A DNA stretch of 64,000 nucleotides from Candidatus Borrarchaeum weybense (GTDB lineage Archaea; Asgardarchaeota; Sifarchaeia; Borrarchaeales; Borrarchaeaceae): assembly GCA_019057385.1 (NCBI GenBank), contig JAHQJS010000005.1, forward strand, positions 128,699 to 192,698, in the 5' to 3' direction. The notes below the pieces were generated by a model, which did not search any database, was not told the origin of the DNA, and saw only the letters and a program-made list of their open reading frames with translations. Of the stretch, positions 10,839 through 63,296 are shown in pieces. The first letter of the stretch is position 1. Each line of letters opens with the position of its first letter. Position numbers and translations under genes: made by a program.

Positions 10839-11813
10839 ATGAGCCCCTTCGTCTCTATCCTTGTTCCTTGCTTAAACGAAGAAAATACTTTGCGTTCTCT
10901 TACAGGACGTGTTGAAAAGACTCTTGCTGGACTACAAAATATTCAATGCGAACTTATCTTTATAGATGATGGAAGTACAGACGAAACGGGGTCAATAATT
11001 GATCAATTAAGTCAAGAAATTCCATGGGTGAAGGCATATCATCATTCAACAACAAAAGGAAAATCTGCAGCCATAATGAACGGTTTTTACCATTCTAAAG
11101 GAAATATCATAATTCTATTAGATGCAGATCTGCAATTCTTTCCTGAAGACATTCCAGCAATCCTTTCAGAAATGACTCAGAAAAAATTAGATATTGTTAA
11201 TGGCTGGAGAAAGGAGCGAAAAGATCCTTTGTCCAGAAGGGCTGCATCTCGTCTCTATAATTCCTTTGCAAGTTCTCTCTTCGGACTAAAGGTTCATGAT
11301 TATAACTGTGGGATCAAAGGTCTAAAACGGGAGGTATTAGAATCCTTCAGATTAAGAAAAGGATATCATCGTTATATACTGGCCCTTGCAAAGCATCACG
11401 GGTTTCGTATAGGCGAAGTAGTAGTTCAACATGCCCCTCGCCCGTATGGAAAGTCTAGATACCGAACTAGTCGACTATTTGCAGGATTTGTGGATTTGAT
11501 GAGTTTAAAACTTCAATTCATGTTTATGGAGCGCCCCATGTCACTGTTTGGCGTGCTTGGCGCATTTATCTTCCTCCTCGGTCTTATTTCTGGAGCTTAT
11601 CTTGTATATCTTTGGTTTCTTGAAGGCGGTATTGGTACACGACCACTTCTCTTCCTTACAGTCCTCTTACTTGTTGCAGGCATTCAGTTTTTCTCATTTG
11701 GATTTTTAGCTGACGCAATTGCATCTTTAAAAACAGACGTTGATTATCTTAATCAATTAGTCATACAGAGGAAAGAAGAAAACACAAAAGGTCAATCACC
11801 CCCTAACAAGTGA
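10839..11813 (+). CDS. GT2 glycosyltransferase (ArnC/dolichol-phosphate type) with two C-terminal TM helices
   Basis: VPCLNEE, IDDGSTD, LDADLQ, HDYNCGIK; stop codon lies inside the adjacent element. Confidence 0.92.
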   Translation: MSPFVSILVPCLNEENTLRSLTGRVEKTLAGLQNIQCELIFIDDGSTDETGSIIDQLSQEIPWVKAYHHSTTKGKSAAIMNGFYHSKGNIIILLDADLQFFPEDIPAILSEMTQKKLDIVNGWRKERKDPLSRRAASRLYNSFASSLFGLKVHDYNCGIKGLKREVLESFRLRKGYHRYILALAKHHGFRIGEVVVQHAPRPYGKSRYRTSRLFAGFVDLMSLKLQFMFMERPMSLFGVLGAFIFLLGLISGAYLVYLWFLEGGIGTRPLLFLTVLLLVAGIQFFSFGFLADAIASLKTDVDYLNQLVIQRKEENTKGQSPPNK

Positions 11814-12199
11814 GGGGGCTTGTTCCGTGAGGAACAAGAGTAATTGGTTGATTAGCCTAAGAGAGGTCGTGGTGGAACACACATGACGGTATCTACGTTA
11901 TCAGGAGAGTTAAAGAACACACCAAGGGATGCTTCTCTAGTCCCGTGCTCTGTAAACGGTGGTTTAAACAGAGAGGAAACTCTCAGTGATCATCGTAGAG
12001 TACTGACTGATAACCTTGGCGAAGAGAACCTACTCCCCTGGTGTTGGGAGCGGCGGGACTTGCGAGTACCCGTTATTAAAACACCACCCGAGGTTGGGTA
12101 CACCAACCCCTGTCTTCGCAGAAAGGGTTGTGTGAGCAACGCTCGACCTCAATTCATGTATCCCCCCAACAAGTTGAGGGGTCTTCTTGCGAGGTAGTT
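11791..12199 (+). mobile_element. Non-autonomous IS200/IS605 element carrying a stand-alone IscB-type omegaRNA (HEARO-like), no iscB ORF
   Basis: GTCAATCACCCC..GGGGGCTTG, GTTGATTAGCCTAAG, CTACGTT, ACACC-GGATGCTTCTCTAGTCC, TAAACAG..CAGTG, AACCTTGGCGAAGAGA motif series; terminal AATTCAT-hairpin-TTCTTG-N10 then ATAAA. Confidence 0.85.
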
Positions 12200-16934: not shown

Positions 16935-18392
16935 ATGCCATATCAAGGTCCATTAAACCAGATTTCGGAAAACATTTACGAAATTCCTATCAAACATAAA
17001 CAAGGGATGAGAGTTCCAGGAAGAGTTTATGCTAGTCCTGAACTTCTAGAAAAAATGAAGGGTGATCTTACACTTACACAGTGTGTAAATGTAGCGCATC
17101 TACCAGGGATACAAAAGTTTGCGATTACCTTGCCCGATGGTCATCAGGGCTACGGCTTTCCTATTGGTGGTGTGGGTGCTACTGACGTAAATGAAGGAGG
17201 CGTTATTTCCCCTGGAGGCGTTGGCTATGATATTAACTGTGGTGTACGTCTACTTTGGACGACTCTTGAAAGAAAGGAGGTCGAGCCTAAGTTAGATGAC
17301 CTCTTATCAACACTCTTTAGGACAGTCCCCTCTGGTGTTGGGAGGACGGGACAAATACGTTTTTCAAAAGGAGAATTAGATGAGGCATTACTTGGGGGAG
17401 TAAAATGGGCTGTTGAGCAAGGATATGGATGGCGTATAGATGCAAGTCATTGTGAAAGCCAAGGATCTCTTGAACACGCAAATCCTGACAAGATTAGTGA
17501 AAAAGCAAAAAGTCGTGGACAACCTCAATTAGGTACATTAGGTAGTGGAAATCATTTCCTTGAGCTTCAATATGTAGAGAAAATCTATGATGAACGCATA
17601 GCTAAAGCTTTTGGTATAACTAATGAAGGACAAGTCACAGTAATGATTCATACAGGATCACGTGGATTTGGACATCAAGTTTGTTCAGATTATCTTCGTG
17701 TTATGGAAAATGCAGTGAGAAAGTATAAAATAATGATTCCTGATAGAGAACTGGCATGTGCGCCTGGGACGAGTAGAGAAGGTGAAGATTATTTTGCCGC
17801 GATGGCATGTGCAGCTAACTTTGCATGGGCAAATAGACAGTTCATCACTCATTGGGTAAGAGAAGGATTTGATAAATGGTATAAAACAGACCCCGACGAA
17901 CTTGGACTTCAACTTATTTATGATGTAGCACATAATATTTGCAAACAGGAACGTCATGTCATTGATGGTAAAACAAAATCACTGTTTGTTCATCGAAAAG
18001 GTGCAACACGAGCATTTCCAGCAGGTCACACCGATCTTCCGCAAGATTATAAACCTATTGGCCAGCCAGTAATTCTACCTGGCTCGATGGGTACGGCATC
18101 ATATCTACTTTGTGGACAAGATACTGCAATGGAATATAGTTTCGGTAGTACTGCACATGGCGCTGGACGAGTTATGAGTAGATATAAGGCAAAAAAGAGA
18201 TATTTCGGAGAGAAAGTTGCTAGTGATTTAAGGCAGAGAGGAATATTTGTATATGCCACAAGTAACAAAGTAATCGCAGAAGAGGCACCAGGGGCATATA
18301 AAGATATTAATCAAGTTGCCAAAGTCTCTAATGACGTAGGGATCGCATCTTTTGTTTGTAAATTACGTCCTATGGGTGTTGTAAAGGGATAA
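16935..18392 (+). CDS. rtcB: tRNA-splicing ligase RtcB
   Basis: LPDGHQGYGFPIGG, GYDINCG, GTLGSGNHF, HTGSRG, HRKGAT, STAHGAGR, EEAPGAYK. Confidence 0.98.
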   Translation: MPYQGPLNQISENIYEIPIKHKQGMRVPGRVYASPELLEKMKGDLTLTQCVNVAHLPGIQKFAITLPDGHQGYGFPIGGVGATDVNEGGVISPGGVGYDINCGVRLLWTTLERKEVEPKLDDLLSTLFRTVPSGVGRTGQIRFSKGELDEALLGGVKWAVEQGYGWRIDASHCESQGSLEHANPDKISEKAKSRGQPQLGTLGSGNHFLELQYVEKIYDERIAKAFGITNEGQVTVMIHTGSRGFGHQVCSDYLRVMENAVRKYKIMIPDRELACAPGTSREGEDYFAAMACAANFAWANRQFITHWVREGFDKWYKTDPDELGLQLIYDVAHNICKQERHVIDGKTKSLFVHRKGATRAFPAGHTDLPQDYKPIGQPVILPGSMGTASYLLCGQDTAMEYSFGSTAHGAGRVMSRYKAKKRYFGEKVASDLRQRGIFVYATSNKVIAEEAPGAYKDINQVAKVSNDVGIASFVCKLRPMGVVKG

Positions 18393-52411: not shown

Positions 52412-52534
52412 GGACCTTCAGCATTCAGGTTTCCCATCTGCTCTCGCAAGGTAGTACTCCCACGAACGTCTCCAGACTTAACTTCTGAGTTCGGCCGGGA
52501 TCAGGTGTGGCCCTGGAGCGATGGCCGAAGATCC
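52412..52534 (-). rRNA. 5S rRNA (stand-alone)
   Basis: GGATCTTC..GAAGGTCC terminal helix, CACACCTGATCCC, CCGAAC, GAAGTTAAG, AGTACT, GGGAAAC; upstream TTTATATA. Confidence 0.95.
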
Positions 52535-52615: not shown

Positions 52616-52662
52616 TGGTGGGGACGGAGGGATTTTCAGAAAGAGAGACTTTCTCTCTTTTA
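52616..52662 (-). pseudogene. Displaced 3' end of tRNA-Trp with T-loop intron remnant (att-like direct repeat)
   Basis: 52616-52635 identical to 53505-53524; adjacent sequence matches the tRNA-Pro 59/60 intron. Confidence 0.8.
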
Positions 52663-52675
52663 TTTTTATTAATAA

Positions 52676-52997
52676 GTGAGCTACCTCGTGCGAAAGCATG
52701 GAGGCTTCCTGCTTCTCAGACGGACTCGATCCCCGTCCGTGACGGGTTACGGAGGTCGTATCTCCACAGGCTTAACATCCCTACGCCCCGTAGGTACGGT
52801 AAACGATGGTGAGACCATCGGAGTATGCACCTTGTCGGCAAGTGTTCCTGTTATCCCTCCAATTGCTGTTGATATCTTTCTCATTTCACCTATATAACTT
52901 GAGGCAGACCCCCCATTGCACATGATGCAAGTGAACATACACATCTACCGCAATTCATCACCACGCTGAAGCGCTGGTGCTTTCTTGCTTAGCTACT
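52676..52997 (-). mobile_element. Non-autonomous IS605 mini-element with TnpB-type reRNA scaffold and 45-aa remnant ORF
   Basis: About 120 bp near-identical to 46551-46668; left end closely resembles that of the TnpB element at 40032. Confidence 0.85.
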
Positions 52998-53078
52998 AGC
53001 AAAAAAAGTAAGATCAAACCTATAAAAACTTCTATTGAAAGAAAGCAAGAGTAAGATGACCCAGGAGTAGACGCCCTC

Positions 53079-53399: not shown

Positions 53400-53504
53400 T
53401 TATTACTCTCCTATGGATATTGTTGAGTTCAACTCCACCGCGTTCAAAAGATTTGAATCGGTTAAGAGAAAAATATCATCTTACTGTATGATGATTCTTA
53501 AAAG

Positions 53505-53762
53505 TGGTGGGGACGGAGGGATTTGAACCCCCGATTCGAAATGAGACTTCCCTAATTTTGACTGATGTTTTTTGCCTCATTCTTCCGCCAACCGTGAGAA
53601 CCACGCCACGTGTTGCCATCGGGTTTCTCTGGTAAGCACAACTCCAGAAGATCTTCATCCTTCCGTCAGTTTTTGCTATTTACAACCTCTGGAGCCCGAC
53701 GTGCTACATTACCTCATACTAACCTACCAGAGATTAATACGAACTGGCTACACTACGTCCCC
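53505..53762 (-). tRNA. tRNA-Trp(CCA), four predicted introns (18/19, 37/38, 45/46, 46/47)
   Basis: GGGGACG/CGTCCCC acceptor, TCGGG-CTCCAG..A-CCCGA, GGGGG-TTCAAAT-CCCTC, encoded CCA; introns 53708-53743, 53625-53688, 53583-53616, 53535-53581. Confidence 0.9.
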
Positions 53763-53866
53763 AATTGCTACAATTGTAGACACGAAATAGTGATCAGGTT
53801 TTGTTTTAAATTTTACTAAAAATGATAAATTAGTTGTTTCTCAACAAAAAAATAGCCCAGAACAGG

Positions 53867-55015
53867 TTATTCTTTTCTTATAAAACCCACAAGTTTCTTC
53901 AAATCGTCCGCAGTCGCTGATGGACCTACAAGTAATACTTTCTTGCGCCCATCCCCTCCTACATGACAATAGAGTACCATATTTTCTGTTCCTACGATGT
54001 ATATGTCGCAATCCTCTACATCACTTAAAACTAATGTATTTTTAGTTCTCTCTTTTTGTAACTCACCTTTCTGTAACAAGGTGTCTTGAAACTTTTCATC
54101 CCTGACGGCGTCTAAAAGAAACCCAATATCGCCCCAGAGACTCCCATCAACTGTGATATAGTAATATTCATTGAATCGTGAATTAAGGTCATTTGAGAAA
54201 TCTAACGGTCCAAGTGGTTGAGATTTTTTGTAAGAAAGCCGCACAACATCATCAGCATCATCACCTTCGCTAACAGCCTCTTTTATAGCCTGTGTTAGTT
54301 TATCTAACACAACATCACCTGAGAAGGCCCTTAACCATGCAAAAATCGTTCCGCTCCAAATCATGGTGTTAATTCCAAAAACCACATCTGCACCAACTTT
54401 TTCTAATGTGCTTGCATCCGGTTTCTCACGAAATTGAACGCATTCCAAAAGGGGGTATTCGCCCTCTTCTAAGAGAATACATTCAGCAATACCCATTTGT
54501 GTCGGATCGTGATGATCCTGGACTGAGGCTTGCAAACCTATAATTTTTTCTGGATGTTCCAACGTCTTATTTAAGAGGACAAGTTCAGCATTGATGAATG
54601 CATCTGCTTTATCATGATCACACGGCATAAAGATTAGGAGAATTTCTTCTGCACAATCCTCGTTGATCCATCCCGCATTCTTGCATTTCTTACATTGATT
54701 CACATGGGAGTAAATTATTCGTGCAATTGCAGCTGGAAACATATGTCCATTAGAACGGACATAAGGAGGCTCTTTAAGGACTATATCGATTTTAGCCTCT
54801 TTAATCCACGATTGCATTGCATCATCCTCTTTGATGGCGAGTATAACTTGTAGAGGTGTCCGTTCTCGAACACGCAGAACATCGGCCAGCAATATCCTAG
54901 TTTTATCTCGTTTTATCTTCAATAAGTGCTTAGGAAATCCTCCAAATCGCGTTGCTCGTCCCCCAGCCGATGTTAAAAGATATTTCTCTGTGTGATGGAT
55001 TTTATCCTGTGCCAT
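53867..55015 (-). CDS. Divergent sugar-phosphate nucleotidyltransferase (ManC-like)
   Basis: AGGRATRF..PKHLL, MPCDH, FREKPD, INTMIW, WGDIG. Confidence 0.75.
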   Translation of the reverse strand: MAQDKIHHTEKYLLTSAGGRATRFGGFPKHLLKIKRDKTRILLADVLRVRERTPLQVILAIKEDDAMQSWIKEAKIDIVLKEPPYVRSNGHMFPAAIARIIYSHVNQCKKCKNAGWINEDCAEEILLIFMPCDHDKADAFINAELVLLNKTLEHPEKIIGLQASVQDHHDPTQMGIAECILLEEGEYPLLECVQFREKPDASTLEKVGADVVFGINTMIWSGTIFAWLRAFSGDVVLDKLTQAIKEAVSEGDDADDVVRLSYKKSQPLGPLDFSNDLNSRFNEYYYITVDGSLWGDIGFLLDAVRDEKFQDTLLQKGELQKERTKNTLVLSDVEDCDIYIVGTENMVLYCHVGGDGRKKVLLVGPSATADDLKKLVGFIRKE

Positions 55016-55189
55016 TGCGTTCTCCTCATTTTACTCTTCAGACATCTCATCTGAACACCATGATTTTGGAAATGTCTCTTCATTTCTACATTAAGTCAGG
55101 TTACAAATAAAAAAGTTAACTTCGATATCGAGAACTTCGCTCAGAATTATTATGAGCACCTTTTAATCCATGTAGTTATCTGAGCAATT

Positions 55190-55735
55190 TTAATTTATAA
55201 AGAAGTTCGTTTGATAGATATTTCCTGTGGCTGAGTAAATAGTGACCCTTACAGAACTATCTGTAAGAAAATAGTCTCCAGATCCTTCACAATACAACTT
55301 AAAGCTAACGAAAATACGAGATGCAGGGATCGTCACCCCTAAATCATTCCCTTTAGGATTAAGTAAAGTCTCATCATCATTTAGATATACAGCTACTTTC
55401 CAGTTGTTATCCGTTCCAGATGTCCAAATTCTACCATCATTTTCTACTTCTAGATGTGTCAAAGTAATTTCTGTACCCCCTGTATTAGTAACAACAAAAC
55501 TCATAGCATAATCCTGTGATGCACCTCCTGGTGCAACCGAGAACTTATTGGCTCTGTCTCCATCTCTCGCATGATATTGAAAACCGCCAATCGCAATAGC
55601 TTCTTGCTGGCTTGCCACATAAAGAAATGCAAAACTAAAAAACATTATCACGGAGACTAATATTCCCAGAAATAAAATATATGGAGTTTTAGCTTTGAGT
55701 TTATACACGACCCAGCCCTCTTTTCCCAAAGTCAA
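55190..55735 (-). CDS. Archaeal pilin-like surface protein
   Basis: Basic N-terminus + TM helix, VTNTGGTEITLT strand, VRVTIYSATGN C-terminus; cleavage site atypical. Confidence 0.55.
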   Translation of the reverse strand: MTLGKEGWVVYKLKAKTPYILFLGILVSVIMFFSFAFLYVASQQEAIAIGGFQYHARDGDRANKFSVAPGGASQDYAMSFVVTNTGGTEITLTHLEVENDGRIWTSGTDNNWKVAVYLNDDETLLNPKGNDLGVTIPASRIFVSFKLYCEGSGDYFLTDSSVRVTIYSATGNIYQTNFFIN

Positions 55736-55913
55736 TTAACTTGATATCATTTTTTTCAAGTGAGTGGCTCTCAATATTAAATGGAACAAATGGAACATAT
55801 AGATTAAATGAATATAAGAAGCATATAGATCCAAGCTTCATGGATTCAGGGTTCACCATAAAGGTTAAAAAAATAAAAAACAAATCAAATAAAAAGCAAT
55901 GCCACCAATAAGA

Positions 55914-56016
55914 GCCGCCGTAGCTCAGCTGGTAGAGCGTTGGACTTGTAATCCAATGACAGTTCTGCTATTCGCATAACTGGTGGAAGTCGAGGGTTCA
56001 AATCCCTCCGGCGGCT
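55914..56016 (+). tRNA. tRNA-Thr(TGT), one intron at 45/46
   Basis: GCCGCCG/CGGCGGC, TTGGA-CTTGTAA-TCCAA; 30-nt insertion 55959-55988. Confidence 0.93.
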
Positions 56017-56058
56017 TCATATACTGTCTCACATCCCAAAAGACAGTTTATTTAATGT

Positions 56059-56259
56059 GGGCGGGTGGTCTAGCATGGTATGATTCCGGATTTGGGTGCC
56101 CTCCTCTTAATGAGGAGACAAAAACATCCGGAGTTCTGCTTGGGTAACCCCAGCACGATACGGAATGACTCTACACGCGCGCTGTGGTGTCCCGTTTGCC
56201 GGGAGTTCGAAGGAATAGAGAGAAACCCTCTCTTTCTGAAAATCTCCCCTCGCCCACCA
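56059..56259 (+). tRNA. tRNA-Pro(TGG), four predicted introns (37/38, two tandem at 45/46, 59/60)
   Basis: GGGCGGG/CTCGCCC, CCGGA-TTTGGG..A-TCCGG, GGGAG/CTCCC, encoded CCA; introns 56097-56125, 56134-56165, 56166-56197, 56212-56242. Confidence 0.88.
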
Positions 56260-56351
56260 CTCTTTTTGAAAAATAAGTATTGAATAAGATAATATAATTC
56301 CTAAAATCATACTCTAATTCATTATTTGAAATGCTCAAGTTAGGTGTTTAG

Positions 56352-57809
56352 ATGAATCATGTGGAAATAATGATGCTCGATAAGAAGACCCGAATCGTTC
56401 TTTGGCAGTGTCTTGTTGAAGTTATTGAAGAATATATTACAAATGTTAATCAAGCACGCGTTGCCCCCTATTTAGATGCAGATAAGATACGATCTCTGCT
56501 AAACTCTATTACATTTACAAAGTCCATAGATCCTTTACAGGCATTGAATTTTGTAGTGAAAGGCTTGTGGGACTATCAAATGCATGTAGCTAATCCACAA
56601 TACTTTGGATTATTCAATCCGTCTCCAACCACAATGGGGATCGCAGCTGATGCTTTGGTTGCTGCTTTTAATCCTCAACTCGCAACATGGAGTCATAGTC
56701 CCTTTGCCGTGGAAGTTGAACAACATTTAATTCGATTTTTTGCTTCTCAATTTGGTTATAATTCGGAAAAAATAGATGGCACTTTTACATCTGGTGGTAC
56801 TGAAGCTAATCATACAGCTCTATTAACAGCTCTCACTCACAAATTTCCAAAATTTGCACAAAGAGGGCTAAGAGGACTCGACACACTGCCTAAACTGTAT
56901 GTTTCTACAGAGAGTCATCATTCTCTTATAAGAACTGCTCGTTCATGTGGTCTGGGCGTAGAGGCAGTGCAACAAATACCTGTAGACGATTCATTGCAAA
57001 TGAAAGTTGATGTGCTTATTGAGCAAATTGCAAAAGATAGAGACGTTGGGTTCGCTCCATTTCTAGTCGCGGCTACCGCAGGAACGACAAACGCCGGAGT
57101 GGTAGATCATATAAAAAGAATTGCTGATGTAGCAGAAAAGGAGAAACTTTGGTTTCACGTTGACGCGGCATGGGGAGGTGCGATCGTATTTGTAACTGAA
57201 ATGAGAAATGTTCTTGAAGGCATTGAACGATCAGATTCGATCACATTCGACACACATAAGTGGCTAAATGTCCCTATGGGCGCTGGTCTATTCTTAACTC
57301 GCCATCCAGAAATTCTCCTCAGAACTTTTTCTATAGAAGCCGATTATATGCCAAAAGATGCGTTGGGATTAAATGTAGTAGATCCATATATTCGTTCCCT
57401 CCAGTGTTCCCGCAGATTTATTGGTCTAAAAGTCTTTTTATCTCTTGCTGTGGCAGGATGGAATGGATATAGCACCGTAATTAGACACCAAGTAAAAATG
57501 GGAGATTTATTGCGCCAAGAACTTAAAAAATCAGGTTGGAAAATCGTCAATCAGACAAAGTTACCAGTTGTGTGTTTTGTTGATCAACAAAGACCAGAAG
57601 GGAAATCTGTCGAGTTCGTCGAAAGCATCGCTCAGGGAGTCGTTTCTTCTGGAAAGGCTTGGATTTCTACTACAAGACTGAAACAGAATATACCTGTGCT
57701 TAGAGCTTGTATTACCAACTACCGGACAGAACCAGAAGATATTCATGCTTTAGTCCATGTGCTCAACGAAACAAGGCAAGCTTTTTACAGCAAAATTCGT
57801 CAAACATAG
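56352..57809 (+). CDS. Group II PLP-dependent decarboxylase
   Basis: FTSGGTEAN, ATAGTT, HVDAAWGG, DTHKWL. Confidence 0.92.
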   Translation: MNHVEIMMLDKKTRIVLWQCLVEVIEEYITNVNQARVAPYLDADKIRSLLNSITFTKSIDPLQALNFVVKGLWDYQMHVANPQYFGLFNPSPTTMGIAADALVAAFNPQLATWSHSPFAVEVEQHLIRFFASQFGYNSEKIDGTFTSGGTEANHTALLTALTHKFPKFAQRGLRGLDTLPKLYVSTESHHSLIRTARSCGLGVEAVQQIPVDDSLQMKVDVLIEQIAKDRDVGFAPFLVAATAGTTNAGVVDHIKRIADVAEKEKLWFHVDAAWGGAIVFVTEMRNVLEGIERSDSITFDTHKWLNVPMGAGLFLTRHPEILLRTFSIEADYMPKDALGLNVVDPYIRSLQCSRRFIGLKVFLSLAVAGWNGYSTVIRHQVKMGDLLRQELKKSGWKIVNQTKLPVVCFVDQQRPEGKSVEFVESIAQGVVSSGKAWISTTRLKQNIPVLRACITNYRTEPEDIHALVHVLNETRQAFYSKIRQT

Positions 57810-57820
57810 CTTTCAAGTTA

Positions 57821-58312
57821 TCATGTTAATGAAAGTGTAGTATCCTCTTTCTCAGTAGAAAGTACAATAACACTCCGCGTTCGTCCCACTCCAGGAATAC
57901 GATTAATGGTTCTTATCATTCCCTCAAGAGTTGATATATTTTCGGTCTTCACTTTAATAAGGTGATCTGCATCCCCCGCCAAGTTAAATACTTCCAAGAC
58001 ATCCTTCATATTAGCAACTTCGTAAGGAACAGCCACATCTGGTTCATGGGCCTTAAAATCTAATGTAATTTCAATAAAGGCGGTAACATCTTTGCCTAAC
58101 TTTTTCTCGTCTAAAATAACTGTGTACTTCTTGATGATTCCACTTTCTTTCATTTTTCTTATTCGTTCATGGACTGTCGGAATCGCTAAATTTACAATTT
58201 CATCGCTTGCAATAGTTTTAATTGGTCTTGATGAATCCTCTTGTAGTAATTCAAGAATTCTCAGGTCTTTTTCATCTAACGTGAAGCCATTTGTTGACAC
58301 CATAAACTTCAC
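57821..58312 (-). CDS. Lrp/AsnC transcriptional regulator
   Basis: LDEKDLRILELLQ HTH, ERIRKMKESGIIKKY, RAM domain. Confidence 0.93.
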   Translation of the reverse strand: MKFMVSTNGFTLDEKDLRILELLQEDSSRPIKTIASDEIVNLAIPTVHERIRKMKESGIIKKYTVILDEKKLGKDVTAFIEITLDFKAHEPDVAVPYEVANMKDVLEVFNLAGDADHLIKVKTENISTLEGMIRTINRIPGVGRTRSVIVLSTEKEDTTLSLT

Positions 58313-58447
58313 CCTCTACTTTTAGTGTTATCACTAAGTGAATATTTTCTTATTGATATATAAAGGTTCCCTCATATTTTCTTTGATAACTGATATAAAC
58401 CAGAAGAAATAATACAAATATTGAAGTTGACCGAAAAGAGATGTTAA

Positions 58448-58780
58448 TTGTACGAAAATAATGGAGGCATTATTATCATGTCATTTGAAGTTAATTTTAA
58501 TAGAGTAACTCAAAATTTGAACACGGTTATATTAAGTGAGGAAAGGAATCTGCTACAAGAAATAGCAAAACCACAAATCTTAAAGAGTCTTAGAATATCA
58601 GAAAACAAACTCTTGCGGCTAGTTCTGAAAGATCAAAAATACTTTATTGAGTTAATAGCGAGTGGTTATAAAGTTACACAGTTAGCAGCAGGGAAAACTA
58701 CTCTACAAGAGGCAGAAAAATGTTATGTGGAACTCCTCCATAAGATAAAAAATGGAGGAAGCATGCTAGAGCCATATTGA
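58448..58780 (+). CDS. Hypothetical protein
   Basis: ORF with GGAGG before MSFEV. Confidence 0.6.
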   Translation: MYENNGGIIIMSFEVNFNRVTQNLNTVILSEERNLLQEIAKPQILKSLRISENKLLRLVLKDQKYFIELIASGYKVTQLAAGKTTLQEAEKCYVELLHKIKNGGSMLEPY

Positions 58781-59034
58781 TTCGAAACATTACCGCAGTT
58801 CATTAGTTTTTTATGATTTTATAATCGTTAAGCACTTACTCCGAAATTTTTTTCGTTGTTGCATCATCTTTTTACTACTTTTTCTGATTCAGTAATTATC
58901 TGTATAAAAATTGCCGTAAATCTTTAGTCAAAACGGTTATAACCCCGAAAATCATTAATATATATAGGTAGGAATACCTAAAATATTTCATGATCTATCG
59001 TGATAGTTACAAATAATGAAAGAGGTGAGGGGAA

Positions 59035-59307
59035 ATGAAGGGAAAAATAAAGGATGTTATACTTCAACTCCTCGACGAATCGTTCTACGAAGTCCCTATA
59101 GCGGTTCCTAAAGTCACAGCTTTCATAAAGGAATTCTTCCCTAAAGCAACAGAACATGAAATCGAGGCAGTTATTGAAGAATTAATAAAGGACGGCTTCT
59201 TAATCCTTGGAATTGCTTATGGCTATGAACGTGGCATAATGAGTGCGAAGAAGATTCCTGAGAAACCACCGCTAGCCTACTTAAAGCCAATTCTTGCGAA
59301 AACATAA
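59035..59307 (+). CDS. Small hypothetical protein, possible winged helix
   Basis: GAGGTGA SD; EIEAVIEELIKDGFL pattern. Confidence 0.65.
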   Translation: MKGKIKDVILQLLDESFYEVPIAVPKVTAFIKEFFPKATEHEIEAVIEELIKDGFLILGIAYGYERGIMSAKKIPEKPPLAYLKPILAKT

Positions 59308-59495
59308 CATTCTCTTTTTTTCGTTTTTTAGATATTTTTCTGATCTGATTTTTCAAGTCAAAAAATGGATATTTTCTCTAAATTCCCTTGCTGACGTTTT
59401 TTGAAGAAATGAAAATAGGAAACCGCTTTAACGTTGATAACGCTATTAACCGTTAACATTTAAAAAACGTAACATGAATTTAGGGAAGATCAACA

Positions 59496-59864
59496 ATGAA
59501 AATATCAGCTATTGAATTGGAGAAACTTTTAGACGAAATACCCGTAGCACTTACGTACGTAGATACGAACGGCATCATTCTCTATCGTAACAAAACCGCT
59601 GCACAACGACCTTTGCCGAAAGGAACTCGAGAACCTGGAGCCAACATACGAGACTGCCATGCACTACCGGAGAGTTTAGAACAGATAGAAAAAATCTTTA
59701 ATGGTTTTAAAAACGGTCGCAAAACACCACATCACTATATTTCTCAAAGGACAGATCTCAAAGAATTAGTAACTTTAACTCCGATGTTCGAAAAAGATCA
59801 GTTTGTTGGATGTTTCTCAACTATCCATCCGCTTGAAATAAAGGGTGTAAGTAGAACTTTTTAG
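59496..59864 (+). CDS. Stand-alone PAS-domain protein
   Basis: LLDEIPVALTYVDTNGIILYRN, DCH, FVGC. Confidence 0.8.
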   Translation: MKISAIELEKLLDEIPVALTYVDTNGIILYRNKTAAQRPLPKGTREPGANIRDCHALPESLEQIEKIFNGFKNGRKTPHHYISQRTDLKELVTLTPMFEKDQFVGCFSTIHPLEIKGVSRTF

Positions 59865-59869
59865 AAGAG

Positions 59870-61426
59870 TTAGTTCCCGATTAAATCACGAATGAACTGA
59901 ACTAACAGGCGTACCCCTACTCCTGAAGCACCTTTTGGGATGTATGCTTTCTTTTTATCTGAGCGAGCAGTACCTGCTATATCTAAATGAATCCATGGAG
60001 TTCCTTTTTCTACAAATTCTGATAAAAATACAGCAGCTATAATTGCTGCCCCTTCGCGTCCACCTACATTTTTTAAATCGGCAAAATCACTTCTTAAATG
60101 CGTAGAATACTCTTTCCATAGGGGTAATTCCCAGACTCGTTCCCCAGTTTTTTCACCTGCTGACGTAAGTAGTTTCTTGAAGTTTTCTGCTTCTTTATTT
60201 GCCATTAATCCGCTAGCATGTGCTCCTAAAGTTATTCTAATTGCTCCAGTAAGTGTTGCAATATCGATTACAAGAGTTGGAGAATATTTCTTAGCATAAG
60301 TCAGTGCATCAGCCATTACTAATCTTCCTTCAGCGTCTGTATTCACAACTTCTATGGTTTTACCAGAAAAAGACTTGATTACATCACCTGGTTTTATTGC
60401 TTTTCCTCCGGGTAAGTTCTCTGTTGCGGGAATGAGGGCAAATAAGTGAATTGGCAACTGTAAATGGCTTACTGCATGTATGAGACCAATTACTGTGCAT
60501 CCGCCGGATTTATCGTATTTCATGTTCTCCATTCCTGTCTTCTGTTTTAATGAAAGACCTCCAGAGTCAAAAGTAATAGCTTTGCCAATGACGACAATCG
60601 TTTCTAGTGCCTCTTTTTCTTGTGGAGTATATTCAAGAATAATGAACTTTGCAGGCTGATCACTTCCTTGTGCCACACTTAGATAGGCATTTAGCCCCAT
60701 TTCTTGTGCAATTTCTTCATCTAGAATATTATATTTTAGACCCAGACTTATTGCAAGGTCTTCTGACTTCGTAGCTAGGTAAGTAGGGGTTGCTATGTTA
60801 CCAGGCATATTAGCGAGATTTCGCGCAAAATTTGTGGCTTCTGCAATAGTTTTACCAATGTTTGCTCCTTCCTGGATTTCATCAAGAACGGTCATTTCTC
60901 GTTCCAAAAGCAGAATTTTCTTTATGTCAATAAATTCACTGCGAGAATCCGTTTTTAGTTCTACAAACTTATACATGCCCAATATACTTCCTTCAATCAC
61001 TGCTTGCGCAGTATCTTTCGCCGAATTATCTAGACGAATTTCATGAAGGGTTGTTACAATTTCTTGGCAATTCAATTCTCGAGTACGAACTGCAGTTTTT
61101 CCACTTACTTGTCTAAGCCTTTCAAGGCTAAATTCATCCTTTTTGCCCAGACCTACGATTAAAAGTCTGGAATGCGAATTCTTCCAATCTGGTCGAACAA
61201 TCTCTATAGTATTCAATTTACCTACGAATTCTTTGCGAGTTAACAATCCGTTAATCGCCCCGTCAAGGGCAGAATCTACTGCTTGTAAAGATTTACTCGT
61301 AAAATCACTGGTTTCATTCTCAAAAACACCTAAAATTGCGATATCAAATACCCTTTCTTTAATATTTTCTTCGAGTTTCCCCTGTTGTATATGAATCTCC
61401 ATGATGTAAGCAACTCCCTGTATCAT
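59870..61426 (-). CDS. pepA: Leucyl aminopeptidase (M17)
   Basis: GKAITFDSGG, MKYDK, NTDAEGRL, ATLTGA, WIHLDIAG. Confidence 0.96.
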   Translation of the reverse strand: MIQGVAYIMEIHIQQGKLEENIKERVFDIAILGVFENETSDFTSKSLQAVDSALDGAINGLLTRKEFVGKLNTIEIVRPDWKNSHSRLLIVGLGKKDEFSLERLRQVSGKTAVRTRELNCQEIVTTLHEIRLDNSAKDTAQAVIEGSILGMYKFVELKTDSRSEFIDIKKILLLEREMTVLDEIQEGANIGKTIAEATNFARNLANMPGNIATPTYLATKSEDLAISLGLKYNILDEEIAQEMGLNAYLSVAQGSDQPAKFIILEYTPQEKEALETIVVIGKAITFDSGGLSLKQKTGMENMKYDKSGGCTVIGLIHAVSHLQLPIHLFALIPATENLPGGKAIKPGDVIKSFSGKTIEVVNTDAEGRLVMADALTYAKKYSPTLVIDIATLTGAIRITLGAHASGLMANKEAENFKKLLTSAGEKTGERVWELPLWKEYSTHLRSDFADLKNVGGREGAAIIAAVFLSEFVEKGTPWIHLDIAGTARSDKKKAYIPKGASGVGVRLLVQFIRDLIGN

Positions 61427-61703
61427 ATTATGTATAGCGCAGTTCGATCTAAAAAATAGAGGAGTTTATTAAAAAAAATAATTTAAATTAGTAGATTTCA
61501 AGAGCTCGTCTATGAAACTCTCCTATGTGAACTCGGTATTTTTCTTTCATTGGTAGAATTTGCCTGTAAATGGTAAGTTATTATGTTAAGATGAAGAGAT
61601 TTACTAGAAAATTTATCAACTATGGTGACATGGTTATACCCAAACTAGGAGTTTGTTTTCTAAAGCCCGATGGCGAGACTCCTCAAAGAACGAGGTGATT
61701 TCT

Positions 61704-62219
61704 CTGAAAAAAAGTCTAATAGTCTCAGTATTCAGCCTCGTACTATTGCTAACGTTGATGCCAGCTGCCAATGCTGCATACACGCATGAAGACCTAACGC
61801 TAACCGTCTTGGTGAATGGTTCTGATACAAGCGCTCACAACGTCAAATCAAATCCTTTAGTAATAGACTTAGCGGAGCCCATCACAGTTAGCCTTTCGAT
61901 GACTAATGCCGGTGAGACAGTTCATTTAACTGACGCTACAGTGTCTTTCTACACCCTCCAAACAATACTCTTCTGGGATATTGAATCGAAGGTATATGAT
62001 CATCAAGTAGACCTTGATAATGAAGATGATGATGGTGATGGAAAGGAAGGTTTCGATATATCTGCTGCCACAAGCGAGTCTGACAGTTTTGACATATCTC
62101 CTGAAGAAATGGCCGAGTATAGAGATGCACTTTCTGGGCAAAGAGTACGGATTGACATCCTCTTTAACTTTGAAACTATTCCAGACTATACAATAAAAGT
62201 CTACATAACTTTAGTTTAG
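61704..62219 (+). CDS. Secreted acidic beta-rich protein
   Basis: Signal peptide KKSLIVSVFSLVLLLTLMPAANA; probable CTG start after GAGGTGA. Confidence 0.7.
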   Translation: MKKSLIVSVFSLVLLLTLMPAANAAYTHEDLTLTVLVNGSDTSAHNVKSNPLVIDLAEPITVSLSMTNAGETVHLTDATVSFYTLQTILFWDIESKVYDHQVDLDNEDDDGDGKEGFDISAATSESDSFDISPEEMAEYRDALSGQRVRIDILFNFETIPDYTIKVYITLV

Positions 62220-62414
62220 CCCTCTCTCTCTTTTTCTTTTTTTATTTTGCCTCTAATTTCATTCTAGGTGTTGATTTTCTAAATTATGTTGAGAAAGAAC
62301 TCTTCACTCCTTATACGAATAAAGAAACATCAGAAGTTAACAATTGAGAGGGATATTCTTTTATATTTTAATTACTTATGACGTAATCTAGCTATAACAG
62401 CTTAACATCACCAA

Positions 62415-62611
62415 GCCGGGGTGGCTAAGAGTCGATGCATGAGGAAATTACCCTCACTACATCGATGAGAAGCCTGGTTATAGCGCCGGACACTTTCCGA
62501 GCCGGTTTCATAGAGAATATCCCAAGAAAGCCCTTTCTTGAGACATCCGGAGAGACGTTACACGCTGAGGTAATGTTCTGAAGGTCGCGGGTTCGAAGCC
62601 CGCCCCCGGCA
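62415..62611 (+). tRNA. tRNA-Met(CAT), probably elongator, four predicted introns (about 15/16, 32/33, 37/38, 45/46)
   Basis: GCCGGGG/CCCCGGC, GCTA/TAGC D-stem, CCGGA/TCCGG; introns 62430-62472, 62492-62507, 62513-62544, 62553-62583. Confidence 0.88.
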
Positions 62612-62662
62612 CTATCCTTAAAGGCTTGAGACACACCCTACGAAATTGATACATCATAATAA

Positions 62663-62833
62663 GCGGGGGTGGCCGAGCCAGGTCAATTTGCCTACAAGGG
62701 TCAGATCATAGGCGCTGGTGTGTGAGGCAACTGCTGCCTTATGCTACGAGACTTAAGATCCAGTGACGTAGGTCTACGTGGGTTCGAAAAGTTTTGGCGA
62801 AAGCCTTTTTCGGAAATCCCATCCCCCGCACCA
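62663..62833 (+). tRNA. tRNA-Leu(TAA), three predicted introns (D-loop, about 30/31, 59/60)
   Basis: GCGGGGG/CCCCCGC, CTTAAGA loop, long variable arm, encoded CCA; introns 62687-62709, 62719-62750, 62789-62816. Confidence 0.9.
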
Positions 62834-62873
62834 ACTCATCCTTAAACAAAAACCCTCTTTTGAATTAAAAAAT

Positions 62874-63010
62874 GCCCCGATAGCTCAGCTGGTAGAGCGC
62901 GACCTTGGTAAGGTCGAGTTGTCTTCGGAACTCCCGAAGGTGCGAGAAGTCGCGGGTTCGAAGGAAATTTGAGCGGAGCGCTCTTTCCGAAACACCCGCT
63001 CGGGGCTCCA
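62874..63010 (+). tRNA. tRNA-Thr(GGT), two introns (45/46, 59/60)
   Basis: GCCCCGA/TCGGGGC, CGACC-TTGGTAA-GGTCG, encoded CCA; introns 62919-62948, 62963-62993. Confidence 0.92.
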
Positions 63011-63296
63011 TTCAATTTACTTCAATTTTAACAAGTAACCCCAGTTAAATCCGCGATCCTTATATAATCAGATCAGTCTTATTGAGCGGTAACCCCTTCA
63101 ACGTTTCTTTGAATTATAGGTTAAATATCTTCAATCAAAGAATTAATTAACAAGTAATTGATGAATAGATGTAGTAGAGGGAGTAAAACTTAAATTTTAA
63201 GAAAAATTGAAGTAGAGGCGCAAAACTTTATTTATTATAGTTCAGTTATTAAGGTGAATAAAATTAGTGGATTTAAGGACGAATGTTGGTGATTAT

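Follow-up and report, generated by a model that had tools for sequence, protein, structure and literature searches.

Can tRNA genes that are interrupted by as many as four insertions still encode the tRNAs of the cell, and are the insertions introns of the usual archaeal kind? The question is raised by the window (the whole 64,000-nucleotide stretch of DNA analysed here), in which six tRNA genes lie between positions 53505 and 63010: Trp-CCA, Thr-UGU, Pro-UGG, Met/Ile2-CAU, Leu-UAA, and Thr-GGU. We confirmed that all six are interrupted. Trp, Pro, and CAU have four insertions each, as the initial annotation had stated, and Leu has three, Thr-GGU two, and Thr-UGU one (mean, 3.0 per gene). The 18 insertions amount to 601 nt and are 16 to 64 nt long, with 12 of them between 28 and 34 nt and a modal length of 32 nt. 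Their removal leaves products of 73 to 87 nt, and ARAGORN called a tRNA in all six, which bears out the earlier view that cloverleaves emerge once the insertions are taken out. Our preferred explanation, to which we give a probability of roughly 0.9, is that all six genes are functional and single-copy in a Borrarchaeum-like Asgard archaeon and that they contain 17 or 18 ordinary archaeal BHB introns.

Simple detectors miss such genes, as had been anticipated. In the unspliced window, ARAGORN detected none of the six, ARAGORN -i called two of them wrongly, and the Rfam tRNA model found two. Of the 37 cellular tRNA genes detectable across the genome, about 33 are over-long.

The tRNA-Trp(CCA) gene is on the reverse strand (53508 to 53762; 255 nt from position 1 to the discriminator, 74 nt when mature), with its CCA end encoded at 53505 to 53507. 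ARAGORN called the spliced product as Trp(cca), and the mature sequence is the same in Candidatus Borrarchaeum yapensis, the nearest named genome (with one boundary set by hand). It is the sole copy on cellular contigs. Intron 1 (53708 to 53743; 36 nt) interrupts the D-loop between G18 and G19. It has 3 of 4 central-helix pairs and a 12-bp inner hairpin, and it does not differ from B. yapensis. Intron 2 (53625 to 53688; 64 nt) is at the canonical 37/38 site, with 3 of 4 pairs and a 7-bp outer helix that is the anticodon stem, and differs from B. yapensis by one indel. In Euryarchaeota, a tRNA-Trp intron bears a C/D-box guide RNA, and intron 2 is similar in being long, at 37/38, and nearly invariant between species. 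However, it has no recognisable box C or D except one CUGA, and it matched no Rfam C/D family. We do not class it as a C/D-box guide RNA intron. Intron 3 (53583 to 53616; 34 nt; 45/46) has 3 of 4 pairs and a 4-bp inner helix. Intron 4 (53535 to 53581; 47 nt; 46/47) has 4 of 4 pairs, a 7-bp inner helix, and the top score in a blind BHB scan. Only one exon nucleotide, G46 (53582), parts the two. B. yapensis has a homologous 29-nt intron at 45/46, followed directly by G-U-C, and lacks intron 4. Therefore, this 81-nt insertion is two introns.

The other five genes are on the forward strand. ARAGORN called the spliced form of tRNA-Thr(UGU) (55914 to 56016; 103 nt, 73 nt when mature), and this gene matched the Rfam tRNA model at 68.1 bits with an insert of about 31 nt (31 insert letters in the alignment). 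Its intron (55959 to 55988; 30 nt; 45/46) has 3 of 4 pairs and a 5-bp inner helix. The B. yapensis orthologue is intronless, being shorter by exactly those 30 nt. After a spacing of 42 nt comes tRNA-Pro(UGG) (56059 to 56259; 201 nt including the encoded CCA), which ARAGORN also called when spliced and which has the same mature sequence in B. yapensis. Intron 1 of this gene (56097 to 56125; 29 nt; 37/38) has 3 of 4 pairs and a 9-bp outer helix. Differences in a relative's contig are confined to this intron and include compensatory pairs (56104/56114 and 56105/56113). Intron 4 (56212 to 56242; 31 nt), at 59/60 in the T-loop, has 4 of 4 pairs and a 5-bp outer helix, topped the blind scan, and is exactly missing from B. 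yapensis.

By motif geometry alone, the 64 nt inserted at 45/46 of tRNA-Pro parse well as two abutting 32-nt introns, intron 2 (56134 to 56165) and intron 3 (56166 to 56197), with one phosphodiester bond in common. Intron 2 has 3 of 4 pairs and does not differ from B. yapensis, whereas intron 3 has 8 substitutions. In the full precursor, intron 3 has 4 of 4 pairs, drawing on the last bases of intron 2, and once intron 2 is excised it has 3 of 4. It is possible, if rather doubtful, that the insertion is instead a single intron cut at its outer sites only, with a coincidental inner site. Intron 2 has no inner helix beside its bulge, both halves occur together in B. yapensis, and a hand reading of the outer sites alone also gave 3 of 4 pairs. 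However, no inner helix then adjoins the bulges, whereas the two-intron parse gives the second intron its full central helix and yields an AA|G 3' bulge, as at 45/46 of Trp, Thr-UGU, and Thr-GGU. Also, each half has the modal intron length, and the analogous Trp insertion is two introns by comparison. Because we found no genome with only one half of the Pro insertion, the earlier count of about 18 introns becomes 17 or 18.

The remaining three genes are close together. tRNA(CAU), an elongator Met or Ile2 tRNA, spans 62415 to 62612 (198 nt) without an encoded CCA; tRNA-Leu(UAA), of class II, begins after a spacing of 50 nt (62663 to 62832; 170 nt); and tRNA-Thr(GGU) follows after another 41 nt (62874 to 63010; 137 nt including the encoded CCA). 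ARAGORN called all three when spliced (the CAU product as Met(cat)), and all have the same mature sequence in B. yapensis. Unspliced, Thr-GGU gave a partial Rfam match of 30.1 bits. In the CAU gene, intron 1 (62430 to 62472; 43 nt) is in the D-loop at 15/16, with a boundary taken from D-loop length. Its motif is the weakest (2 of 4 pairs), and it is found in all three congeners. Intron 2 (62492 to 62507; 16 nt; 32/33) has 4 of 4 pairs and one substitution relative to B. yapensis. Intron 3 (62513 to 62544; 32 nt; 37/38) has 4 of 4 pairs and a 4-bp inner helix, joined by a 5-bp outer helix after intron 2 is excised. Intron 4 (62553 to 62583; 31 nt; 45/46) has 3 of 4 pairs and an 8-bp inner helix and is exactly missing from one congener (G002). 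Leu intron 1 (62687 to 62709; 23 nt), at the 3' end of the D-loop (about 20b/21 to 21/22), has 4 of 4 pairs, short flanking helices, and one substitution relative to B. yapensis. Leu intron 2 (62719 to 62750; 32 nt) is within the anticodon stem at 30/31, placed in the better of two equivalent registers, with 2 of 4 pairs and a 4-bp outer helix. Leu intron 3 (62789 to 62816; 28 nt; 59/60) has 4 of 4 pairs and a 5-bp outer helix, and a second congener (G001) has an intron of different sequence at that site. Thr-GGU intron 1 (62919 to 62948; 30 nt; 45/46) has 3 of 4 pairs and a 9-bp inner helix that is alike in B. yapensis despite 5 substitutions. Thr-GGU intron 2 (62963 to 62993; 31 nt; 59/60), another top hit of the blind scan, has 4 of 4 pairs, a 4-bp inner helix, and a 5-bp outer helix. 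It is exactly missing from G001.

Taking the 18 junctions together, the central helix has 4 of 4 pairs in eight, 3 of 4 in eight, and 2 of 4 in two, and 16 have at least three pairs between two 3-nt bulges. This fits the initial annotation, in which most junctions were a 4-bp helix with 3-nt bulges, often mismatched. Its site assignments were also correct: every one of the five genes with a short variable arm is interrupted at 45/46, and three genes (Pro, Leu, and Thr-GGU) are interrupted at 59/60. At the two junctions with 2 of 4 pairs, the inner hairpin is long (7 bp at CAU intron 1 and 10 bp at Leu intron 2), and these two and Pro intron 2 need relaxed recognition. A stricter test (H>=3 and an adjoining helix >=3 bp) was passed by 14 of 18 junctions, compared with 2.1% of 2,668 control intervals of matching length that were slid along these precursors, and the EndA register was the best in every set of equivalent cut registers. 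The blind scan gave 46 to 269 candidates per precursor, which is unspecific, so the introns are not definable from the motif alone. It is very unlikely that the insertions are not removed by EndA and are either retained as expansion segments or excised by self-splicing or a different nuclease. Splicing is deduced here, and the motif is weak at a few junctions, but the junction geometry is about 35-fold enriched over the controls, and insertions retained in the D-loop, T-loop, or anticodon stem would disrupt both tertiary folding and decoding. Moreover, 16 to 64 nt is far below the size of group I and II introns, no Rfam intron family matched the insertions, and the mature tRNA encoded is the same whether or not a congener has a given intron.

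Comparison with congeners fixed some boundaries exactly. Five of the 18 introns are missing, at precisely the predicted junctions, from one congener or another, and three introns of congeners have no counterpart in the window. The Met-CAU gene has a fifth intron among congeners. Between the window and B. yapensis, only 3 of 463 exon nucleotides differ, compared with 33 of 484 nucleotides plus 11 gap columns in the common introns (Fisher P = 1.7e-7), and compensatory changes preserve the pairing of intron hairpins. The cellular exons are thus strongly constrained while the introns drift. A CAU T-loop intron is present in all three congeners and not in the window, and so exact loss in the window lineage is the best reading. 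The active proliferation proposed initially therefore holds as fast intron change and not as gain alone. As part of our best explanation as a whole, we are confident that introns are gained, lost, and replaced rapidly within the genus around a fixed mature tRNA. An intron-against-intron BLAST gave short matches only, with no large near-identical family across genes. These comparisons also bear on whether the insertions are chimeric joins or binning errors. The sequence comes from a metagenome bin whose contamination is estimated at 7% and whose scaffolds have gaps. However, the whole 9.6-kb stretch falls within a single contig of the probable source run, and the same interrupted genes, with sequence differences of their own, are found in four other congeneric assemblies and in contigs of independent studies. 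We regard the chance of such an artefact as negligible.

Could the interrupted genes be decaying pseudogenes or insertion-riddled relics, with working tRNAs supplied from elsewhere? Compact Pro-UGG, Thr-UGU, Trp-CCA, and Met-CAU genes do occur in the same bin, but only on contig C1. That contig is a tailed virus (major head protein, E = 9e-34; head protease, E = 1.5e-29), its tetranucleotide correlation is an outlying 0.91 compared with at least 0.98 among the other contigs, and its tRNAs are only 54 to 73% identical to the cell's spliced tRNAs (45/79 to 54/74 aligned columns). C1 is a mis-binned viral contig, foreign to the cell. On cellular contigs there are no second copies of the six mature sequences and no compact copies for these four anticodons. 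Together with the constrained exons and the congener orthologues that yield the same mature tRNAs, this makes the pseudogene idea extremely improbable. The inference of BHB-type introns in functional genes of an Asgard archaeon is supported.

The genome encodes two EndA paralogues, an alpha/beta pair. In the first, the positions that we read as the catalytic triad are occupied by Tyr, His, and Lys, and this paralogue aligns without gaps to Aeropyrum pernix chain 3p1z_B over what we presume is the specificity loop. The second appears from its sequence to lack the triad His. An RtcB RNA ligase gene is also in the window (17079 to 18389, forward strand; PF01139, 581.8 bits; G000:C5:145777-147087). 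We infer cleavage, ligation, and their order as follows. Each gene would give a long precursor, probably within two- and three-gene transcripts (Thr-Pro and CAU-Leu-Thr). Junctions would fold into a 4-bp helix with a 3-nt bulge on either side, and an alpha/beta EndA of the broad-specificity type would cut after the second bulge nucleotide on both sides, with RtcB expected to join the exons. Because motifs overlap at Trp introns 3 and 4 (around G46) and at the abutting Pro introns, splicing would be stepwise, with refolding and ligation between steps. Simultaneous cutting of all four Trp sites would free G46 as a single nucleotide.

That Asgard tRNA genes are heavily interrupted has been in print since 2024 (Valentin-Alvarado, PMC11291895), and a bioRxiv preprint by Goswami et al. 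(October 2026) covers 90 Asgard genomes with up to five introns per gene (10.64898/2026.10.13.758758). The archaeal maximum of three assumed initially is therefore outdated, four-intron genes were in essence already catalogued for this lineage, and the claim of novelty fails. Our genes share the published pattern: nearly every tRNA gene is interrupted, most by several introns (PMC11291895; 10.64898/2026.10.13.758758); introns are 20 to 35 nt at BHB motifs; many introns sit outside the canonical site, for example in the D-arm, variable region, and T-loop; the EndA paralogues fit an (alpha-beta)2 enzyme; introns have been gained recently and repeatedly; and standard callers miss genes. Borrarchaeaceae average 2.12 intervening sequences per gene, with half missed by tRNAscan-SE (10.64898/2026.10.13.758758). 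From gene lengths, we estimate about 2.1 for the present genome, and the six window genes are above that family mean. Thermoproteales, a different phylum, also have multi-intron genes (Sugahara 2007 and 2008; Fujishima 2010; reviewed in PMC4090602), with BHB introns at comparable positions (45/46, 59/60, 30/31, and D-arm), a heterotetramer endonuclease, and some introns that fold into the motif only once others are removed (PMC3728597). However, they have up to three introns per gene, compared with four here and five in a congener, and we found no large near-identical intron family in the six genes. The red alga Cyanidioschyzon merolae likewise has several BHB-like introns per gene, non-canonical sites, and ordered removal, but in a eukaryotic nucleus, with independently folding introns and some permuted genes (PMC3728597); none of our six is permuted.

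The window genes are thus a well-documented new example of the published Asgard pattern, not a new kind of thing. Unlike that census, our comparison fixes the exact boundaries of five introns by congeners without them and makes at least one exact loss visible. Smaller details are new: the one-nucleotide exon (G46) in tRNA-Trp and the two abutting introns in tRNA-Pro, which are not separable in a census that merges neighbouring insertions, and the rapid turnover of introns within a genus.

We placed six tRNA genes and 18 insertions by reading the sequence against the tRNA cloverleaf. tRNA-Trp(CCA), on the minus strand (53508-53762), has introns of 36, 64, 34, and 47 nt at 18/19, 37/38, 45/46, and 46/47, respectively. 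The other five genes are on the plus strand. Thr-UGU (55914-56016) has a single 30-nt intron at 45/46. Pro-UGG (56059-56259) has introns of 29 nt at 37/38 and 31 nt at 59/60, with two abutting 32-nt introns at 45/46. The CAU gene (elongator Met or Ile2; 62415-62612) has introns of 43, 16, 32, and 31 nt, in this order, at 15/16, 32/33, 37/38, and 45/46. The three introns of Leu-UAA (62663-62832) are 23, 32, and 28 nt long and lie at the 3' end of the D-loop, at 30/31, and at 59/60, respectively, and Thr-GGU (62874-63010) has introns of 30 nt at 45/46 and 31 nt at 59/60. After removal of the insertions, ARAGORN called a tRNA with the expected anticodon for each of the six genes, and the cloverleaves of the products contain the stems, U8, A14, G18G19, U33, and T-loop. 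CCA is encoded in four of the six genes. Therefore, the counts in the initial annotation (six of six genes interrupted, about 18 introns, three genes with four) were correct, as were its sites (45/46 in all five class I genes and 59/60 in three). The six interrupted tRNA genes are a real and well-supported finding, and we infer that they are spliced.

Default searches see little of this. ARAGORN with default settings found no tRNA in the unspliced 64-kb window, and the Rfam tRNA model reached its threshold only twice, at 55914-56016 (with an insert of about 31 nt) and in a partial match at 62874-62932. When introns were allowed, ARAGORN mis-called Thr-UGU as Tyr with a 9-nt intron and fused the 3' end of tRNA-Trp to a false 679-nt intron, calling it Asn.

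The junctions fit the bulge-helix-bulge (BHB) splicing motif, a 4-bp helix between two 3-nt bulges, in strict or relaxed form. A blind BHB scan of the precursors gave 46-269 candidates per gene, which is too unspecific to define introns, so the cloverleaf was used first and the motif second. The central helix is a perfect 4 bp at 8 of the 18 junctions, has one mismatch at another 8, and has two mismatches at 2, both with inner hairpins (7 and 10 bp). A stricter test, requiring at least three of four central pairs and an adjoining helix of at least 3 bp, was passed by 14/18 junctions versus 2.1% of 2,668 control intervals of equal length placed at sliding positions in these precursors (nominal binomial P of about 1e-20, for trials that are not fully independent). 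Where cut registers were equivalent, the one following the rule of the splicing endonuclease EndA (cut after the second bulge nucleotide) was always the best paired. Two other kinds of interruption were rejected. Group I/II introns are ruled out by the size of the inserts, only 16-64 nt versus a ribozyme core of hundreds of nucleotides, and there were no Rfam intron matches. Split or permuted genes are ruled out by exons that are collinear within 103-255 nt in each gene.

We then compared orthologous loci, aligned across Candidatus Borrarchaeum yapensis and four assemblies of the same GTDB genus. Among named genomes, the closest is the B. yapensis metagenome-assembled genome, which has the same tRNA cluster and 76% amino acid identity in the flanking aminopeptidase gene. 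With this neighbor and a further assembly of the same genus, the lineage described initially as probably Asgard is indeed an Asgard one. Precise absences were found for 5 of the 18 introns. Thr-UGU of B. yapensis is intronless, with the break exactly at the predicted junction (intron 1), and its Pro-UGG lacks exactly the 31-nt 59/60 intron (intron 4). In its Trp-CCA, the 45/46 intron is followed directly by G-U-C, and therefore the window's 47-nt intron 4 is missing. The CAU gene of one assembly (G002) lacks exactly the 31-nt 45/46 intron (intron 4), and Thr-GGU of another (G001) lacks exactly the 59/60 intron (intron 2). For the remaining 13 introns, there was no intron-free orthologue among the genomes compared. 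Some introns of the relatives are absent from the window. Trp-CCA of B. yapensis has a 31-nt 59/60 intron that the window gene lacks. A 28-nt T-loop intron in the CAU gene is present in all three congeners (B. yapensis, G001, and G002), which brings the count for this gene to five in B. yapensis and G001 and to four in G002, where the 45/46 intron is missing. Leu-UAA of G002 has a 31-nt variable-arm intron, and a contig from an independent RNA library has a 30-nt insert there. The direction of gain or loss was read by parsimony, using four draft genomes of congeners and no rooted tree.

Exons and introns diverge at different rates. Between the window and B. yapensis, 3 of 463 exon nucleotides differ, compared with 33 of 484 aligned nucleotides plus 11 gap columns in the 15 shared introns (Fisher P = 1.7e-7). 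Five of the six mature tRNAs are identical, and Thr-UGU has three differences. Compensatory changes keep the intron hairpins paired, as at 56104/56114 and 56105/56113 in a relative's contig, and the inner helix of Thr-GGU intron 1 is 9 bp long in the window and B. yapensis alike, despite five substitutions.

The shared introns have not all changed equally. Introns 1 and 2 of tRNA-Trp (53625-53743, minus strand; 100 nt) have no substitutions and one indel relative to B. yapensis, whereas 12-25% of positions differ in other shared introns (Trp intron 3, Pro introns 1 and 3, and both Thr-GGU introns). Pro intron 2 and Leu intron 3 are likewise unchanged. From this sequence conservation, Trp introns 1 and 2 may have a function of their own. 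C/D-box guides have a box C (RUGAUGA), a box D (CUGA), and guides placed to pair with the tRNA. We rejected such a guide for the 64-nt Trp intron (53625-53688), which matched no C/D family at E values up to 10 and by eye has one CUGA only plus a degenerate C'-like GAUGA.

Sequences at a given site may also have been exchanged. In G001 (locus L004), the Leu-UAA 59/60 and CAU 45/46 introns occupy the same sites as the window introns but are unrelated to them in sequence, and the first 11-12 nt of this Leu intron are also the first of the Thr-GGU 59/60 intron of the window. These patterns suggest that introns were replaced, or that genes exchanged them at equivalent positions. As for near-identical introns spread between genes, BLAST gave short matches only, apart from one of 26 nt involving an orphan tRNA-Trp fragment.

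This fragment (52616-52662, minus strand) duplicates the final 17 nt of tRNA-Trp together with CCA and lies between tRNA-Trp and the 5S rRNA gene (52413-52532, minus strand). Ahead of it is most of a hairpin of the 59/60 intron type, which matches the Pro 59/60 intron at 92% identity over 26 nt. The intact Trp gene does not need this fragment. G002 has the same piece behind the same DUF1330-like gene. In B. yapensis there is no orphan fragment, and tRNA-Trp with an intact 59/60 intron is directly upstream of the 5S gene. The orphan piece may be a trace of the event by which the T-loop intron was lost from the Trp gene of the window. With regard to an integrated element as the cause of that missing intron, the B. 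yapensis-like trailer adjoins the intact gene and not the orphan piece.

Two structural details concern tRNA-Trp and tRNA-Pro. Since B. yapensis has only the first part of the 81-nt Trp insertion, followed by G-U-C, a single 81-nt intron is ruled out; therefore, the insertion consists of two introns around a single exon nucleotide, G46 (53582). Their motifs overlap: GCGG, which closes the intron 3 helix, and CGGA, which opens the intron 4 helix, have three bases in common, and two nucleotides are common to both bulges. Either intron keeps three of four helix pairs once the other is removed, so either splicing order works. However, if all four cuts were made before any ligation, G46 would be freed, and we therefore infer that tRNA-Trp must be spliced stepwise. 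The 64-nt Pro insertion parses as two 32-nt introns with one phosphodiester bond in common. The first has a 3' 'AA|G' bulge, as do the 45/46 introns of Trp, Thr-UGU, and Thr-GGU, and the helix of the second is fully paired (4/4) and draws in part on bases at the end of the first. We consider it rather unlikely that this insertion is instead one 64-nt intron, a reading with which the genomes compared agree in that none has one half alone (G003, another assembly of the genus, is uninformative here because its Pro gene is the CGG paralogue). The published Asgard census would merge each of these pairs (Trp introns 3 and 4; Pro introns 2 and 3) into one insertion. Neither a one-nucleotide tRNA exon nor abutting tRNA introns were found in the literature accessible to search. 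Ordered splicing, with a motif that forms only after another intron is removed, has been reported for some archaea (PMC3728597).

A more speculative reading of these two pairs, to which we assign a probability of about 0.3, is that overlapping and mutually exclusive motifs would make a cut-join-refold-cut sequence obligatory and that new introns would prefer sites at or beside existing EndA cleavage sites. Landing at or beside such sites is proposed because there are five exact presences or absences in six genes, differing intron sequences at one site, and an 11-12-nt start common to the 59/60 introns of two tRNAs. One possible route of gain would be that cleavage and ligation run in reverse and that the product is then copied into DNA.

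The genome encodes enzymes that could splice these precursors. There are two EndA paralogues (PF01974), located at G000:C4:663774-664019 and G000:C5:195898-196158. One, of 208 amino acids, is alpha-like and has Tyr, His, and Lys at the positions read as the catalytic triad. Its best alignment, to Aeropyrum pernix chain 3p1z_B, is ungapped and includes a part that we take to be the loop linked to a broad substrate range. The second, of 223 amino acids, lacks the catalytic His by reading of its sequence. A gene for RtcB, the RNA ligase that joins exons, is in the window itself (17079-18389; 581.8 bits). Alpha/beta-type EndA pairs have been associated with cleavage of non-canonical introns (PMC5829648, PMC4090602), and such pairs occur in most Asgard genomes (bioRxiv 10.64898/2026.10.13.758758). 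The predicted proteins include an EndA probably able to cut non-canonical sites, along with RtcB.

Public runs with parts of these genes include several RNA libraries. In contigs from three runs of RNA libraries and from the DNA run that is the likely source, no spliced joints were seen at the predicted junctions over 53450-63050, although such contigs cannot show mature tRNAs. The RNA-library contigs in this interval contain only unspliced forms of relatives, possibly from DNA carry-over. A 269-nt contig from another study's RNA-seq library matches 62411-62679 with three differences and, in a single piece, spans the CAU gene in unspliced form and the spacer after it and reaches the beginning of Leu-UAA. 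It fits a polycistronic precursor but could be DNA carry-over.

We also searched the whole genome with a script that looks for U8, an acceptor stem of 7 bp, and an intact or split T-arm, with a filter for G+C-rich stems, which recovers all six genes. It found 37 tRNA candidates on the cellular contigs. Their median length is 136 nt; 33 of the 37 exceed 92 nt and 8 are at least 190 nt, lengths that serve as a proxy and not as a full parse. The mean excess of about 69 nt, with a local mean intron of 33 nt, corresponds by this proxy to about 2.1 introns per gene genome-wide. With 3.0 introns per gene, the window's six genes are at the heavy end. Judged by length, then, most tRNA genes of this genome are interrupted, many of them repeatedly. 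ARAGORN called a predicted tRNA-Pyl(CUA) at G000:C7:143743-143811 (minus strand), on another contig of this genome.

Intronless copies supplying the same anticodons had been named as evidence that would overturn the finding. BLAST found no second copy of any of the six mature sequences on cellular contigs. Compact Pro-UGG, Thr-UGU, Trp-CCA, and Met-CAU genes were called by ARAGORN, all on contig C1 (179 kb), which has 11-12 compact intron-free tRNA genes in clusters and its own RtcB. Among the proteins encoded by C1 (e.g., at L023:9232-10749 and L022:19435-19896) are a tail protein, a head maturation protease (E = 1.5e-29), and a major head protein (E = 9e-34); most large open reading frames of C1 have no NCBIfam match. 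It is a tetranucleotide outlier (r = 0.91 versus at least 0.98 among the other contigs), and its tRNAs share only 54-73% identity with the spliced cellular ones (45/79 to 54/74 aligned columns). C1 is therefore a tailed-virus contig binned with the archaeon and not cellular. This rules out its compact tRNAs as cellular spares, and on the cellular contigs no intronless copies supplying these anticodons were found.

Two other elements are in the window. A 332-nt non-coding repeat (52673-53004, minus strand) has 80 BLAST matches in the genome, 19 of them near full length; every match is on a cellular contig, and C1 has none. Each congener has dozens more, and G002 lacks the element at the equivalent site. 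It has no Rfam match and is probably a miniature mobile element. HEARO, the HNH-endonuclease-associated RNA, is the guide RNA of IscB-type elements. A full-length HEARO RNA was matched at 11791-12033 (plus strand; 128.7 bits).

Heavy interruption of Asgard tRNA genes is already known, and the window is a further example. In Atabeyarchaeia and Freyarchaeia, 92-95% of tRNA genes have introns, more than half of them several, and many are non-canonical (Valentin-Alvarado et al. 2024, PMC11291895). Goswami et al. (October 2026, bioRxiv 10.64898/2026.10.13.758758) surveyed 90 Asgard genomes without using the motif. They reported that a gene can hold as many as five intervening sequences, that gains on terminal branches are numerous, and that BHB motifs are enriched six- to ten-fold; for Borrarchaeaceae, the figures were 2.12 per gene, with 51% missed by tRNAscan-SE. 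The archaeal maximum of three per gene given in the initial annotation has thus been surpassed (bioRxiv 10.64898/2026.10.13.758758). Sites 45/46, 59/60, and 30/31 are the classical non-canonical ones in Crenarchaeota (PMC4090602). Only three features here may be new: the exon of one nucleotide, the introns that abut, and the exact data on intron presence and absence within the genus. To our knowledge, the multi-intron phenomenon in Asgard archaea is two years old in the literature, and splicing has yet to be shown in any Asgard cell.

Our analysis adds carefully bounded examples of interrupted Asgard tRNA genes. Congeners lacking single introns give junctions that are independent of the motif, which addresses the circularity problem raised by the 2026 preprint. 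There are also practical consequences: default tRNA callers under-report tRNAs in such genomes, and a viral contig binned with a genome can give its tRNA set a false look of completeness. How EndA and RtcB treat overlapping motifs, and in which order, can be asked with the one-nucleotide exon and the abutting introns as substrates. The differences within the genus make Borrarchaeum well suited to the study of tRNA intron gain and loss.
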